Sequence record: MH051915
Length of the DNA: 64,000 nt
Reading direction: 5' to 3' (one strand)
Source of the DNA: Enterobacteria phage vB_EcoM_IME339
Part shown: piece after piece, positions 2,404-42,237 of the stretch
Layout of the letters: every line of letters begins with the position of its first letter
Numbering within the stretch: the first letter of the stretch is position 1
The notes under the pieces: model-generated
Databases searched by the model: none
The model's input: the letters and a program-made list of their open reading frames with translations, nothing else
Told to the model about the DNA's origin: nothing
Made by a program: the position numbers and the translations under genes

Positions 2404-3342
2404 ATGTACAATATTAAATGCCTGACCAAAAACGAACAAGCTGAAATTGTCAAACTGTATTCAAGTGGTAATTACACCCAACAGGAATTGGCTGATTGGC
2501 AAGGTGTATCGGTGGACACAATCCGTCGTGTTTTGAAAAATGCTGAAGAAGCTGAGCGCTCCAAAGTTACCATTAGCGGTGACATTACAGTTACAGTTAA
2601 GAGCGATGCAGCTATTGCTCCAGTTGCTAAATCTGACATTATTTGGAATGCATCTAAAAAATTCATTTCAATTACTGTTGACGGTGTAACTTATAACGCA
2701 ACTCCTAATACTCATTCAAACTTCCAAGAAATTCTTAATCTGCTTGTTGCAGATAAATTGGAAGAAGCGGCGCAAAAAATTAACGTTCGTCGCGCTGTTG
2801 AAAAATATATTTCCGGTGATGTTCGAATTGAAGGTGGAAGCTTGTTCTATCAAAATATTGAATTGCGGTCTGGTTTAGTTGATCGTATTCTCGATTCGAT
2901 GGAAAAAGGTGAAAACTTTGAATTTTATTTTCCGTTCCTGGAAAATCTGTTGGAAAACCCAAGCCAAAAAGCGGTATCTCGACTCTTTGATTTCTTGGTA
3001 GCAAACGATATTGAAATTACAGAAGACGGTTACTTCTATGCTTGGAAAGTAGTTCGCAGCAATTACTTTGACTGCCATTCAAATACTTTTGATAACAGTC
3101 CTGGTAAAGTAGTTAAAATGCCACGTACTCGTGTGAATGACGATGATACACAAACTTGTTCTCGTGGTCTGCATGTGTGTTCTAAATCTTATATTCGTCA
3201 CTTTGGCAGTTCAACCAGCCGAGTTGTAAAAGTTAAAGTACATCCTCGCGATGTAGTATCAATTCCGATTGATTACAACGACGCTAAAATGCGTACCTGC
3301 CAATACGAAGTAGTTGAAGACGTTACTGAACAATTTAAATAA
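2404..3342 (+). CDS. rIIB: rIIB protein
   Basis: 312 aa, same length as T4 rIIB; adjacent to rIIA. Confidence 0.9.
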   Translation: MYNIKCLTKNEQAEIVKLYSSGNYTQQELADWQGVSVDTIRRVLKNAEEAERSKVTISGDITVTVKSDAAIAPVAKSDIIWNASKKFISITVDGVTYNATPNTHSNFQEILNLLVADKLEEAAQKINVRRAVEKYISGDVRIEGGSLFYQNIELRSGLVDRILDSMEKGENFEFYFPFLENLLENPSQKAVSRLFDFLVANDIEITEDGYFYAWKVVRSNYFDCHSNTFDNSPGKVVKMPRTRVNDDDTQTCSRGLHVCSKSYIRHFGSSTSRVVKVKVHPRDVVSIPIDYNDAKMRTCQYEVVEDVTEQFK

Positions 3343-3369
3343 GGGCTTCGGCCCCTTACTGAGGAAAAT
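3343..3369 (+). promoter_or_regulatory. hairpin (GGGC-UUCG-GCCC) fused to a GAGG Shine-Dalgarno, ending 1 nt before the ATG; copy 1 of a 27-nt repeated cassette
   Basis: 27-mer gggcttcggccccttactgaggaaaat is identical to 41520..41546. Confidence 0.5.
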
Positions 3370-3370
3370 T

Positions 3371-3565
3371 ATGCTAGGTTATCAAGCACGAGTAAAAGAA
3401 GAATACGATCAATTAATGCTCAAAATTAATGCATTGAGCAAATTTTTAGAAAGTGAAAAGTTTTCAACGGTTAATGCAGTTGAGCAAGAATTACTGCTTT
3501 CGCAGTTTATCTCAATGAAATCTTATGCAGATTGTTTAGAGAAAAGAATTGCACAATTCAAATAA
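3371..3565 (+). CDS. small hypothetical protein (64 aa) between rIIB and denB
   Basis: ATG follows the hairpin/SD cassette; ORF is bracketed by hairpins; in frame with table ORF 3314..3565. Confidence 0.45.
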   Translation: MLGYQARVKEEYDQLMLKINALSKFLESEKFSTVNAVEQELLLSQFISMKSYADCLEKRIAQFK

Positions 3566-3568
3566 AAT

Positions 3569-3592
3569 AAAGGGCTTCGGCCCTTTTGTTTT
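3569..3592 (+). terminator. rho-independent terminator-like hairpin with UUCG loop and T-tract
   Basis: agggcttcggccct followed by tttgtttt. Confidence 0.6.
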
Positions 3593-3651
3593 AAGGGAAG
3601 TTATGATTTATTATATGAATATCAGTAATTCCGACGTAAAAGGAAAGTTTA

Positions 3652-4209
3652 ATGCAGAAAACGAATCCGGGTTTACAGAGACTATTTCAGATTCCGACAT
3701 TTACCCTATCAAACAATGACTTGACTAGTGAAATGAAGGTCAAAATTGCTGATACAGCAAGATACTCTTTAAAACAAAATCCTAATCAGGATAAAGCAGA
3801 AGTTATCGAAAGATGCCGTATTGCGGTGTACGCAGAATTTTTTGTAGCAGATTGGCTGAGCGGGTATGTTAACAAAGGCCAAGAGGATGTTAATGACCCG
3901 TATACATATGCGTGGGATGTACTGGCGCATCCAAAATACTGTGGGCTTCGTGTAGAAGTCAAAACACATCAAACTGACTCACGTTGGATTTCGGTAACAA
4001 CTGGATGCAGTGGAGAGTATCCATACGGTTCTGGAATAAATCTAGGGCCCATTCTGAATCATCAGGTCGCTGACTGTATAATTATATTCAACACTAAAGA
4101 AATTCATCCAGGTGTCATCCAGTACACTCCGAAGTTCATCGGTGATAGAGAAGACCTTCGTAAGGTTGTAAGAAAAAGCAACTACAACGGATGGTATCTT
4201 TCCATTTAA
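3652..4209 (+). CDS. denB: endonuclease IV (dC-DNA specific)
   Basis: 185 aa, same length as T4 DenB; synteny between rIIB and ndd. Confidence 0.75.
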   Translation: MQKTNPGLQRLFQIPTFTLSNNDLTSEMKVKIADTARYSLKQNPNQDKAEVIERCRIAVYAEFFVADWLSGYVNKGQEDVNDPYTYAWDVLAHPKYCGLRVEVKTHQTDSRWISVTTGCSGEYPYGSGINLGPILNHQVADCIIIFNTKEIHPGVIQYTPKFIGDREDLRKVVRKSNYNGWYLSI

Positions 4210-4256: not shown

Positions 4257-4290
4257 CAACTATCAACTGATACGGATTTGGAGAATAAAA

Positions 4291-5008: not shown

Positions 5009-5122
5009 ATGAAAAAGATTGTTAAAGCTATATGGAATGTAGTTATAATACTAATAGTTTTGAGTATATTCCCAATCGTTTTAATGATTGATGTATTAAA
5101 CGCTTACTTTGGATTTATGTGA
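5009..5122 (+). CDS. micro-ORF, predicted single-pass membrane peptide (37 aa)
   Basis: GGAGG SD then ATG; MKKIVKAIWNVVIILIVLSIFPIVLMIDVLNAYFGFM. Confidence 0.45.
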   Translation: MKKIVKAIWNVVIILIVLSIFPIVLMIDVLNAYFGFM

Positions 5123-6177: not shown

Positions 6178-6257
6178 TGAGCAATTTCCATAACGAACAT
6201 GTGATGCAGTTCTATCGTAACAATCTTAAAACTAAAGGCGTCTTCGGACGCCAGTGA
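6177..6257 (+). CDS. stp: Stp peptide (26 aa), activator of host PrrC anticodon nuclease
   Basis: Translation [26 protein letters not shown] matches T4 Stp as I recall it; start overlaps ndd stop. Confidence 0.8.
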
Positions 6258-6264
6258 GGAAAAT

Positions 6265-6420
6265 ATGAATATTGCGAAACTATTAGGAGTTATTTCATTT
6301 ATTTGTTGGATAGTAGCATGTGTTTTAACTATCTGTATTGATGTCAGCAGCGTGTTTTCGCAAGCTTTAGCTCAGGGTATGTGTGCATATTTAACATTTG
6401 CGTTGTTATCTAATGATTAA
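6265..6420 (+). CDS. ac: small membrane protein at the ac (acridine sensitivity) locus, 51 aa
   Basis: Position between stp and 52; hydrophobic MNIAKLLGVISFICWIVACVLTICIDV... Confidence 0.6.
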   Translation: MNIAKLLGVISFICWIVACVLTICIDVSSVFSQALAQGMCAYLTFALLSND

Positions 6421-26020: not shown

Positions 26021-26074
26021 TTTACAGTAGGGTAGTAGTGTGATACTATTACCCTATCAACTAAGGAGAATAAA

Positions 26075-26317
26075 ATGAGATTACAACGTCAGAGCATTAA
26101 AGATTCAGAAGTTAGGGGTAAATGGTATTTTAATATCATCGGTAAAGATTCTGAACTCGTTGAAAAAGCTGAACGTCTTTTGCGTGATATGGGATGGGAA
26201 GATGAATGCGATGGATGTCCTCTTTATGAAGATGGAGAAAGCGCAGGATTCTGGATTTACCATTCTGATGTTGATCAGTTTAAAGCTGATTGGAAAACTG
26301 TGAAAAAGTCTGTTTAA
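26075..26317 (+). CDS. hypothetical protein (80 aa)
   Basis: ORF downstream of an early promoter-like block at 26021..26060. Confidence 0.5.
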   Translation: MRLQRQSIKDSEVRGKWYFNIIGKDSELVEKAERLLRDMGWEDECDGCPLYEDGESAGFWIYHSDVDQFKADWKTVKKSV

Positions 26318-40631: not shown

Positions 40632-40635
40632 GTTG

Positions 40636-40660
40636 AGGACTCCTTCGGGAGTCCTTTTTT
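40636..40660 (+). terminator. rho-independent terminator
   Basis: aggactccttcgggagtcct then tttttt. Confidence 0.65.
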
Positions 40661-40741
40661 ATTTTCCAAAGATTGCATAAAGTTGTTTACAGTATAGTTC
40701 CTTTGTGATAGTATTATCTTACACAAACAAAGGAGAATAAA

Positions 40742-41074
40742 ATGAAAACGATTAATCTGAACGCTACAGTTAAAACTAAATGCTTCAATGGTAAATATGA
40801 TGAAACTATGTGGTTCTTAATGGCAGTTGAAGGTGATATTATTGAAGTAGAAACAACAGAAGGTATGGGAACAGATTTCACCTTTACAATTCAAGTTCAT
40901 AATTTCTTTACTGGTTGGATTTATGAATTGAATACAGTAATCGTTGGAAAAATTGAACAAAATGAATTGGGTGAATGGTATTATGTTACAGCCCGCCAAC
41001 GTGCCGAACGCTTAATTGAGAAGATGAAAAAAGTTGGTAAACTTGACATGCAACATTGGAAAGTAGTAAAATAA
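40742..41074 (+). CDS. hypothetical protein (110 aa)
   Basis: ORF downstream of an early promoter-like block at 40670..40720. Confidence 0.5.
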   Translation: MKTINLNATVKTKCFNGKYDETMWFLMAVEGDIIEVETTEGMGTDFTFTIQVHNFFTGWIYELNTVIVGKIEQNELGEWYYVTARQRAERLIEKMKKVGKLDMQHWKVVK

Positions 41075-41142
41075 TTGTTTACTTTGGTACAGGATATGAT
41101 ATTATATACCTGTACCGCAATTAAACATCTCGGAGAATAAAA

Positions 41143-41508
41143 ATGAACTACATCAACTTTGAACGTAAATATGTTTCTAATGGTATTGTAGGTTCTATTG
41201 ATACTATCTGCCTTTGGAAACATCAAAATGGATCAGTATGCGAAATTGAACAGTATATGACTCCTAACTACGTTTATATGCGATTTGAAAATGGCATCAC
41301 GGTTTCAATCACGAAAGAAGGTTCTTCTTTTAAAATCGCATTAGATGATGATTTCCGTCAACGCGATTTAGGTACTCATCCTTGCTGGAATGGCGTCAAT
41401 CGTAAGCTTCTGGTTAAAACTTGGATTCGTCATATTCTGAGTAACAGAGCTAAACCTGAGCATCTTGAAGCGATCTTTGATGTAGTTCTTAACGAATTTG
41501 ATATTTAA
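41143..41508 (+). CDS. hypothetical protein (121 aa)
   Basis: ORF downstream of an early promoter-like block at 41075..41130. Confidence 0.5.
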   Translation: MNYINFERKYVSNGIVGSIDTICLWKHQNGSVCEIEQYMTPNYVYMRFENGITVSITKEGSSFKIALDDDFRQRDLGTHPCWNGVNRKLLVKTWIRHILSNRAKPEHLEAIFDVVLNEFDI

Positions 41509-41519
41509 AATAAAATGAG

Positions 41520-41546
41520 GGGCTTCGGCCCCTTACTGAGGAAAAT
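41520..41546 (+). promoter_or_regulatory. hairpin plus SD cassette, copy 2 of the 27-nt repeat
   Basis: gggcttcggccccttactgaggaaaat identical to 3343..3369. Confidence 0.5.
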
Positions 41547-41549
41547 ACT

Positions 41550-41837
41550 ATGTTTATGACTACTTATTTTGATACCCGCAAAAATTTCTGTGAAGTGGTT
41601 TTCTCTAAGGCACCTAAAGACCTTCCTGCTCATTTGCAACCTACCAGTGAATCAATTAAAAACTACGTTAATGTAGTCTGCCCTTTAGAGTTCCGTACTG
41701 TAAATGGGCGTGATACTCTAGCTATTACTAAACTCAATCGTGAAATTGACATTGACCCTTCAATTGCGCGCGAAATTAATATTTCTGATATTGGCGGCGG
41801 TAATGTTAAATCGCACGGTTTTCAGATGAGGTTTTAA
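41550..41837 (+). CDS. hypothetical protein (95 aa)
   Basis: ORF following the hairpin/SD cassette. Confidence 0.5.
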   Translation: MFMTTYFDTRKNFCEVVFSKAPKDLPAHLQPTSESIKNYVNVVCPLEFRTVNGRDTLAITKLNREIDIDPSIAREINISDIGGGNVKSHGFQMRF

Positions 41838-42034
41838 TGAAATTCTTTTTAGGTCAAACTGTTGAATTAAAGGGAGTTGGTATACCTGGATTAATTTCTA
41901 AGGTTCTACCTCCATTTAAATGGAGTGGTATTCAAATAAAAGAGGCTTATATTGTTTCCTGGGTAGATGGAAATGAAGACCTTCGTATGGGTGATGAATT
42001 ATCTCCTATCTATGGATTAAAGGAATTAATATGA
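41837..42034 (+). CDS. hypothetical protein (65 aa)
   Basis: ORF with TAATG overlap. Confidence 0.45.
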   Translation: MKFFLGQTVELKGVGIPGLISKVLPPFKWSGIQIKEAYIVSWVDGNEDLRMGDELSPIYGLKELI

Positions 42035-42237
42035 ATATAATTAATAAGATTTTTGGAATTCAGTACATTAAGGTCACATATAAAGTAACGTATAAAGGTC
42101 CGTATACCGATGAACATGAAGAGCCACAAGTTCAGTCTATTATATTAGAAAAGGACCCTAACTGGCCAGTTGAATTTCGTCTTCCTTGCTATGGTCATTG
42201 GGCTGATGTTGAAATTATAAGTATTGAAAATGTCTGA
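42031..42237 (+). CDS. hypothetical protein (68 aa)
   Basis: ORF with ATGA overlap. Confidence 0.45.
   Translation: MNIINKIFGIQYIKVTYKVTYKGPYTDEHEEPQVQSIILEKDPNWPVEFRLPCYGHWADVEIISIENV

Follow-up and report, generated by a model that had tools for sequence, protein, structure and literature searches.

An exact 27-nucleotide repeat at two gene junctions of a T4-like phage, probably explained by reused intercistronic RNA parts and a rare allele

The locus raises the question of why the same 27 nucleotides, a hairpin followed by a ribosome-binding site (RBS), should stand before two different small genes that lie 38 kb apart in one phage genome. The window analysed is a 64,000-nt stretch of Enterobacteria phage vB_EcoM_IME339 (MH051915), a Tequatrovirus sequence oriented opposite to the T4 reference. 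The initial annotation took the exact reuse as a sign of a mobile regulatory cassette that shuffles small genes. Our preferred reading, to which we assign a probability of roughly 0.6, is that each copy is an intercistronic RNA element within an early polycistronic transcript, and that reused parts together with a rare allele at the first site explain the identity.

The repetition itself holds as first noted. The 27-mer, GGGCTTCGGCCCCTTACTGAGGAAAAT, is present in exactly two copies in the window, at 3343-3369 (site 1) and at 41520-41546 (site 2), both on the + strand; it was found 0 times in 100 dinucleotide shuffles, and no further copy with up to three mismatches exists in the window. The copies end, as had been claimed, 1 to 3 nt before an ATG (1 nt at copy 1, ATG 3371; 3 nt at copy 2, ATG 41550), and the downstream open reading frames of 64 and 95 aa are those of DenB.1 and gp30.6. 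The bases adjoining the 27-mer already differ between the copies (a versus g on the 5' side, t versus a on the 3' side), and local comparison of the 300-nt neighbourhoods of both sites found no similarity outside the 27 nt. Paralogy of the neighbouring genes is rejected, DenB.1 and gp30.6 showing no similarity at E values up to 100. The features concerned are the following.

2404-3342, + strand: rIIB, whose stop codon UAA (3340-3342) adjoins the hairpin of copy 1.
3343-3369, + strand: copy 1 of the 27-mer, between rIIB and denB.1; hairpin GGGC-UUCG-GCCC (3343-3354), linker CUUACU, Shine-Dalgarno (SD) sequence GAGG (3361-3364), A-rich spacer, then ATG at 3371.
3371-3565, + strand: denB.1, 64 aa, Pfam PF21825, served by copy 1.
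41143-41508, + strand: gene 30.7, Pfam Phage_T4_Gp30_7, upstream of copy 2; its SD GGAGAATAAAA (41132-41142) fits the RegB consensus.
41520-41546, + strand: copy 2 of the 27-mer, between 30.7 and 30.6; SD GAGG (41538-41541), ATG at 41550.
41550-41837, + strand: gene 30.6, 95 aa, served by copy 2.

Three pieces make up the 27-mer, namely a hairpin core with C(UUCG)G, a linker of 5-6 nt and the RBS TGAGGAAAAT. The core GGGCUUCGGCCC occurs six times in the window, as does GGGCTTCGGCCC; TGAGGAAAAT serves as an RBS four times, one of them hairpin-free at 5120, and the junction of the parts, CTTACTGAGG, is confined to the two 27-mer sites. The RBS reads GAGGAAAAT and lacks GGAG. Structure prediction for the 27-mer alone gives a 4-bp GGGC/GCCC stem with a UUCG loop at -7.1 kcal/mol. 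In the predicted structures SD GAGG and AUG stay largely free of pairing (mean P(unpaired) 0.74 and 0.67). In its setting at site 2 the hairpin is longer than the repeat:

41516-41535, + strand: full site-2 hairpin, UGAGGGGC-UUCG-GCCCCUUA, 8 bp, -13.5 kcal/mol, beginning 4 nt 5' of the 27-mer.

At site 1 the extra (fourth) C is predicted to be bulged, without a partner, and the stem remains at 4 bp and -7.3 kcal/mol. The earlier description of a stable UUCG hairpin fused to a GAGG RBS is correct as to the hairpin, the SD and the start codon, with the correction that the two hairpins are unequal in strength, being predicted at -7.3 and -13.5 kcal/mol. Part of the linker is itself structural, with UUA pairing with the rIIB stop UAA in the common allele of site 1 and with UGA at site 2.

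The two sites do not stand alone. A scan for C(UUCG)G hairpins returned 11 in the window, 10 of them intergenic, and in 10 of 10 intergenic cases UUCG is on the sense strand of both neighbour genes. Half of the ten then run into a U-run (for example at 3569-3594 and 40635-40662) and the other five directly into an SD and ATG (3343, 6237, 12372 on the - strand, 41516, and 58621 on the - strand), so that the two 27-mer sites are two members of a recurrent hairpin-then-RBS design. Rfam gave no match at the gathering threshold anywhere in the window. Two further hairpins illustrate the two outcomes:

3569-3594, + strand: classical intrinsic terminator after denB.1, with the GGGCUUCGGCCC core and a 7-bp stem, then UUUUGUUUU, in contrast to the 27-mer.
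6237-6267, + strand: third cassette of the same design with another stem, GGCGUC-UUCG-GACGCC, then AGUGAGGAAAAU and AUG.

Comparison with relatives was based on BLAST identity bands in a phage collection and on about 15 fetched loci; an IMG/VR pattern scan and two protein-anchored scans yielded 5 site-1 and 13 site-2 loci, which are too few for a census. The exact site-2 34-mer, including the ATG, was matched in 248 phage records in the band of at least 99% identity, and the window form at the 30.7/30.6 junction is the common form. The gene order 30.9-30.8-30.7-hairpin-30.6-30.5-30.4-30.3 was found at 16 of 17 loci, including relatives at about 80% amino-acid identity. The stems at this site differ among phages (GGGGC/GCCCC or GGAGGC/GCCUCC) and always pair perfectly, the loops are UUCG, UUCA, UUUG or GAAA, and the RBS UGAGGAAAAU is invariant among the loci compared. 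The linker varies (UUAC, UAU, UU, U), UUACU being seen only in part of Tequatrovirus while distant relatives have UU or U. The compensated variation of the stem points to selection on RNA structure. In T4 the two sites are non-identical, with GGGCTTCAGCCCCTTACTGAGGAAAAT at site 2 and GGCTTCGGCCCTTAACTAAGGAAAAT at site 1.

At site 1, rIIB-denB.1-denB was covered to at least 80% in 490 of 519 matching phage records, and an orthologous hairpin-SD was seen in all genomes examined. The commonest allele, CCCTTAACTAAGG (384 records in the 80-90% identity band), is predicted to form a perfect 7-bp stem, UAAGGGC/GCCCUUA, at -10.1 kcal/mol, in which the rIIB stop pairs with the UUA 3' of the stem. A second allele, CCCTTAACTGAGG, accounts for about 44 records (about 10%) and was sequence-verified in TB004, JB75 and fFiEco06; phage EP01 has CCCATTACTGAGG, with A where the window has C, and there is an additional longer allele, CCCTTATCGCATTAAGG. 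The window form, CCCCTTACTGAGG, was found in only five records, SH-1, SH-2, WL-3, JE01 and ZJUN4, and its local stem is weaker than that of the common allele by about 2.8 kcal/mol (about 3). The T4 hairpin at this site is predicted to be weaker still (-4.0 kcal/mol), and because the T4 and window hairpins are so feeble compared with -10.1 kcal/mol, stability at site 1 is not tightly constrained. Two changes (T>C and A>T, or +C and -A) lead from the 10% allele to the window form, and single-step alleles connect the window form with the common one. In view of this allele series, and of the orthologous hairpin-SD in all genomes examined, nothing was inserted at site 1; the exact 27-nt identity is a rare derived state of that site.

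What the element does is suggested by its layout. A G+C-rich C(UUCG)G hairpin would form right after the upstream stop codon (that of rIIB or 30.7), to be followed 5-6 nt on by an unpaired GAGG SD and the start of the small gene (denB.1 or 30.6). We infer that, once formed in the mRNA, such a hairpin would weakly and leakily terminate transcription or make it pause, and would hold up 3'-exonucleases, stabilising the upstream cistron and setting the level of message that reaches the downstream genes; with the G- and C-runs locked in the hairpin, the adjacent RBS would stay accessible, so that initiation there could be independent. An element that works at the RNA level is indicated by the bias to the sense strand, by compensated stems, by loops of the UUCG and GNRA classes and by the position after a stop codon; it is most likely a sense-strand hairpin combining leaky termination and 3' stabilisation beside an exposed RBS. 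It shares its hairpin core with the canonical rho-independent terminators of T4-like phages, the denB.1 terminator at 3569-3594 using GGGCUUCGGCCC, but differs from them in that the 27-mer copies have a hairpin without a 3' U-run and an RBS follows immediately. On the + strand the U-tract is absent at both copies, where the tail is CUUACUGAGG, and a simple terminator scan calls neither; any termination must therefore be weak. In GenBank the records of G50 and JB75 already carry a putative rho-independent terminator at the site-1 hairpin. T4 transcript ends, boundaries or half-lives for the two junctions were not found in the searchable literature.

Two other functions have to be weighed against this one. 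The hairpins might be antisense terminators on the opposite strand, or DNA-level signals, the fit to a sense RBS being incidental. T-rich runs do follow both hairpins on the - strand, where the scan calls them terminator-like (AGGGGCCGAAGCCCCT CATTTTATTT at site 2, ...CCCTT ATTTAAATTG at site 1), and in the GiZh record a rho-independent terminator is annotated at the site-2 hairpin, on the opposite strand. However, the T-richness of the - strand simply mirrors the A-rich surroundings of the upstream stop codon, all 10 intergenic hairpins carry the extra-stable UUCG on the sense strand whereas the antisense loop, CGAA, has no special stability, and the loop swaps seen among relatives are GAAA or UUCA as read on the sense strand, all of which makes an antisense role improbable. 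It had also been suggested that the RBS contains GGAG and is a plausible target of the RegB endoribonuclease. On this reading, cleavage would shut off the downstream small genes. RegB targets are unpaired; the enzyme cuts after the GG of GGAG/U, and its strong sites fit the consensus GGAGRAYARAA (PMC3014915). The location between early genes and the A-rich tract 3' of the SD are as at RegB sites, but the cassette RBS is UGAGGAAAAU, with GGAA only, and the 27-mer, which holds GAGGAAAAU, has neither GGAG nor GGAU; the suggestion fails at this point, and we consider cleavage of the cassette scarcely credible. Sequences that do fit the RegB consensus, GGAGAATAAAA, occur four times on the + strand, each just 5' of an ATG (4280, 26065, 40732 for 30.8 and 41132 for 30.7), which places RegB-type sites in the SDs of 30.7 and 30.8, one and two genes upstream of site 2; experiments in T4 have established the 30.7 site as a RegB target (PMC9409239). 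As the 27-mer lacks GGAG and GGAU, gene 30.6 would have an RBS of RegB-resistant type behind its hairpin, one gene 3' of a RegB-sensitive RBS.

With regard to origin, the proposal that a 27-mer like a PeSL (promoter-early stem-loop) moves or shuffles small genes, its identity reflecting recent spread, has turned out to be very unlikely. Hundreds of Tequatrovirus genomes have both sites as orthologous junctions, in a conserved gene order, and the element lacks a promoter. The search of phage records for the 27-mer, which had been recommended, gave at most two places per genome among the matches listed, always rIIB/denB.1 and 30.7/30.6, and the downstream genes are mutually unrelated and conserved in place. 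Strict conservation of the downstream genes had been named beforehand as the mark of a fixed element; by that comparison the element at site 1 is fixed, with an orthologous hairpin-SD throughout the genomes examined, as is that at site 2 in relation to the gene that follows, but the 5' edge of site 2 is the end point of a natural 30.8-30.7 indel. A crossover between the copies would be lethal, because the direct repeats, 38,177 bp apart, span gene 32, gene 59, rnh, the nrd/td/frd genes and the tail-fibre genes, and 38 kb including gene 32 and the tail-fibre genes would be lost.

This indel is in keeping with a modular view. Genes 30.8 and 30.7 (window 40738-41519) are missing in G8, LZ9, F26, ESh24, AV121 and three BCP phages. 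In G8 (IMG/VR locus L010) homology restarts exactly at 41520, with the 30.8 promoter fused to the 30.6 hairpin-SD, and a query for the G8 junction was covered to at least 80% by nine phage records, a duplicate G8 entry and LZ9 (as a targeted sequence) included. T4-type phages recombine at short dispersed repeats, and PeSLs end in stem-loop, SD and ATG (PMC2839356), and GGGC/GCCC motifs lie at about half of one set of T4 deletion endpoints (Mosig 1998, as quoted in a citing paper). The window-type site-1 allele on at least two denB.1 haplotypes would also be in agreement with mobility. Since homology in G8 resumes at 41520, the 5' edge of the site-2 hairpin is a natural module boundary, which is consistent with the GGGC/GCCC endpoints, although the 27-mer would not thereby be mobile. 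A 10-nt direct repeat, AATAAAATGA (40736-40745 and 41509-41518), was considered as the agent of the 30.8-30.7 deletion and rejected, the G8 junction not being the expected product.

The defining features of a PeSL are AT-richness in one region, a -35/-10 promoter resembling those of sigma70, a stem-loop, and the SD and ATG (Arbiol 2010, PMC2839356; Comeau 2014, PMC4122927), and in the T4/PST type the stem-loop is just 5' of TTTACW-N17-TAYWAT (PMC2839356; PMC4122927). The 27-mer resembles it in having a G/C-rich stem-loop, then the SD and ATG of a small accessory gene, in the early regions of T4-type phages, and in that one natural indel (30.8-30.7) ends at its site-2 hairpin. It differs in having neither the AT-rich UP region nor the -35/-10 promoter: a sigma70-like promoter is absent between stem and SD (5-6 nt) and over the stem, none was called at site 1, and the nearest at site 2 is a 9/12 match upstream (41489-41516), matches of this grade being at background frequency (12 found vs 10.3 in shuffles). 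PeSLs form a multi-copy family in hyperplastic regions, beside indels and replacements, whereas the 27-mer has only two copies at fixed orthologous sites, of which site 1 is outside a variable region and only site 2 adjoins an indel. For lack of a promoter, the 27-mer is not a PeSL. The window does have a true one:

40635-40744, + strand: PeSL-type composite; UUCG terminator hairpin and T-run (40635-40662), promoter of early type TTTACA-17-TAGTAT (40686-40714), SD GGAG, then the 30.8 ATG at 40742.

If no cassette moved, we infer that the copies are identical because both are built from reused parts (core GGGCUUCGGCCC six times, RBS UGAGGAAAAU four times) and because, in a rare lineage, two or three linker bases at site 1 came to match the site-2 state, either by point and slippage mutations or by very short ectopic conversion from site 2. 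The latter route, a short-patch gene conversion in which site 2 as donor overwrote the linker of site 1, concerns the origin only and is compatible with the function preferred above, and we regard it as a real possibility, though one we would not bet on. Its arms would be the 12 nt of hairpin core and the 8-10 nt of RBS that both sites share; every derived change at site 1 matches the site-2 state, and the changes fall within 7 nt between identical flanks. Moreover, they add a C that is bulged at site 1, at a cost of about 2.8 kcal/mol, and paired at site 2, so that they are not locally compensatory, which favours a short conversion. The window and JE01, read at both sites, have the donor allele at site 2, and the other window-type records, whose site 2 is known by match only, each have two matching places, as would be consistent; however, the donor is the majority allele, and its co-occurrence is for that reason uninformative. 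The homology arms are very short, and the alternative common site-2 allele, CCCCTATTGAGG, was found at site 1 in 0 of 442 matching records. Intermediates are known as well: some 10% of records have only the A>G change in the SD, and EP01 has A for C; with homopolymer slippage (CCC to CCCC, AA to A) they make a stepwise mutational path available. The occurrence of the window-type allele on at least two denB.1 haplotypes does not discriminate between these origins, the phages being highly recombining.

By extension, the hairpin-RBS elements of T4-like genomes may homogenise by very short ectopic conversion with arms of about 10-12 nt, or, in a weaker variant, cassettes may be exchanged between T4-like and phiX174-like coliphages; we offer this tentatively and think it rather doubtful. 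If true, it would mean concerted evolution of regulatory parts in a lytic phage genome at the cost of local hairpin stability. The rare site-1 allele is a small natural test case of ectopic micro-conversion in a highly recombinogenic phage.

The exchange with phiX174 deserves to be considered by itself, because the phiX174 J-F intercistronic region, GGGGCTTCGGCCCCTTACTTGAGGATAAATTATG, matches a window 30-mer at 30 of 32 positions (E = 1e-3), the best match outside T4-like phages in 2.3 Gb of phage sequence. Transfer of a cassette between a phiX174-like microvirus and a T4-like phage would make this likeness a homology, and the match takes in the linker UUACU, the upstream 8 nt AACAATTT also agree with window site 1, and E. 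coli is the host of both phages. The shared stretch of about 35-50 nt, however, is a maximally stable hairpin and a canonical RBS, and Pseudomonas PB1-like phages have GGGGCTTCGGCCCCTTACT alone. The UUACU linker is confined to part of Tequatrovirus, and the window-type site-1 form, which gives the best match to phiX174, is a recent rare allele. As G4 and alpha3 reach the same J-F-like layout with other stems, we read the likeness as probable convergence on the same optimal parts, and hold transfer to be a most improbable source of it.

On the preferred reading of reused parts and a rare allele, the significance of the repeat is little beyond bookkeeping, the mildly novel possibility being micro-scale ectopic conversion between dispersed regulatory parts. 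It illustrates that T4-like phages assemble their gene junctions from a limited stock of RNA parts used repeatedly (UUCG hairpins, ribosome sites of the form UGAGGAAAAU or GGAGAAUAAAA, and early promoters of TTTAC type), and with such reuse short exact repeats between distant junctions are to be expected, rather than mobile elements.

C(UUCG)G intercistronic hairpins of bacteriophage T4 mRNA were reportedly described by Tuerk et al. in 1988. The 27-mer sites share with them the same hexamer closing a G-C-rich stem, the sense-strand position between co-oriented cistrons (here + genes), the occurrence in early and late mRNAs, and a structure kept across relatives. Nothing essential sets them apart; what is added is that 27 nt, the adjacent RBS included, are common to two of them in this phage and five relatives. 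The element is of an ordinary kind already described in T4 in 1988, and the exact repeat is a minor allelic curiosity. PMC4371310, which summarises the class, states that T4 mRNA was where UUCG hairpins were first described.

The closest characterised counterpart is found in phiX174, of an unrelated ssDNA phage family but with the same host, in which the J-F hairpin is the terminator TJ. It is leaky, with a read-through of 68% at 37 C and 34% at 42 C, and its disruption leads to faster decay of the upstream mRNA (PMC3335065). The two systems have nearly the same sequence, GGGGCUUCGGCCCCUUACU(U)GAGGA(U)AAAU, and the same succession of stop codon, hairpin, short linker, SD and AUG, and in both GGGGC-UUCG-GCCCC lacks a strong U-tract and lies directly 5' of the next RBS. 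They differ in the gene that follows, which in phiX174 is gene F, for the major capsid protein, and in the T4-like phage a small accessory gene. Because the host RNA polymerase is modified by T4, behaviour in T4-like phages may differ from that in phiX174. TJ is leaky and stabilises upstream mRNA by experiment, whereas its T4-like counterpart is putative, by sequence and layout, and the near-identity of the two provides a testable functional prediction for the U-tract-less UUCG hairpins of T4 early operons.

Genes 30.8 and 30.7 are both missing from phages G8, BCPEco_001, BCPShso_001, BCPSen_003, F26, LZ9, ESh24 and AV121, in which the hairpin and Shine-Dalgarno (SD) sequence of 30.6 are joined straight to the 30.8 early promoter. 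The first base of the 27-mer (the UUCG hairpin, linker and GAGG SD) is the exact point where homology to the window restarts in these G8-like phages.

Window 40738-41519: segment absent in G8-like phages (compared loci L010, from G8, 1440-1500, and L034, LZ9 FN868251)
Window 40736-40745 and 41509-41518, + strand: 10-nt direct repeat AATAAAATGA

One copy of the repeat lies across the 30.8 start codon and the other in the spacer just 5' of the hairpin at the 41520-41546 copy of the 27-mer, the pair flanking the absent segment almost exactly. Simple recombination between the two copies was considered as the source of the G8 junction and rejected, as the junction sequence differs from that product.

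At the rIIB-denB locus, JE01, ZJUN4 and G8 carry about 200-330 additional bases. These make up one further ORF, about 105-110 aa long, in JE01 and ZJUN4, where denB is also shorter.

Window ~3640: extra-sequence point, 3' of the denB.1 terminator and ahead of the start of denB (3652) (compared loci L023 1099-1428, L029 1474-1791 and L007 1254-1460)

Therefore, the variable junction of this locus is 3' of the second, terminator hairpin and not at the 27-mer. The T4 annotation of DenB.1 (64 aa; window 3371-3562, + strand) is hypothetical protein; the protein has a match to the 'crAss001_48 related protein' family of Pfam (PF21825, E = 7e-20), as well as to several PHROG families of unknown function.

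Across 41200-42200, the 30.x kilobase, the window is 100% identical to phage G50; across 3000-4000, the rIIB-denB kilobase, the best database record is SH-1 (97.8%), and G50 reaches only 96.1%. Judged by these identities, the window has a mosaic make-up when set against database records.

The sequence GGAGAATAAAA, a perfect fit to the RegB strong-site consensus GGAGRAYARAA, has four exact copies in the window.

4280-4290, + strand: GGAGAATAAAA, ATG directly 3'
26065-26075, + strand: GGAGAATAAAA
40732-40742, + strand: GGAGAATAAAA, ATG directly 3', serving 30.8
41132-41142, + strand: GGAGAATAAAA, ATG directly 3', serving 30.7

The following ATG was read in sequence for those three copies. The T4 30.7 site is a RegB target known by experiment (PMC9409239).

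In two more distant relatives (gp30.6 identity 79-84%), the predicted helix is lengthened by CUUAAA...UUUGAG, which leaves the 30.6 SD mostly paired, its predicted unpaired probability being about 0.25 vs 0.67 in the window. This folding hints that their 30.6 translation is coupled to 30.7.

L015 1454-1503 and L017 1454-1503: 30.7|30.6 hairpin region of these relatives

Counterparts of the hairpin-SD arrangement are found in phiX174, G4 and alpha3.

L026 150-183 (EF380009 970-1003): phiX174 J-F hairpin and gene F RBS
L036 2555-2602: G4 counterpart region
L037 3032-3069: alpha3 counterpart region

The phiX174 element, GGGGCTTCGGCCCCTTACTTGAGGATAAATTATG, is the J-F intercistronic hairpin (terminator TJ) with the gene F RBS; it shows 30/32 identity to the 30-mer spanning the window's hairpin and SD, and the 8 nt 5' of it, AACAATTT, are matched at the window's rIIB|denB.1 site (27-mer copy at 3343-3369) too. 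All three phages have the order stop-hairpin-SD-ATG in common, although the stems differ in G4 and alpha3, and the alpha3 hairpin likewise has a UUCG loop.
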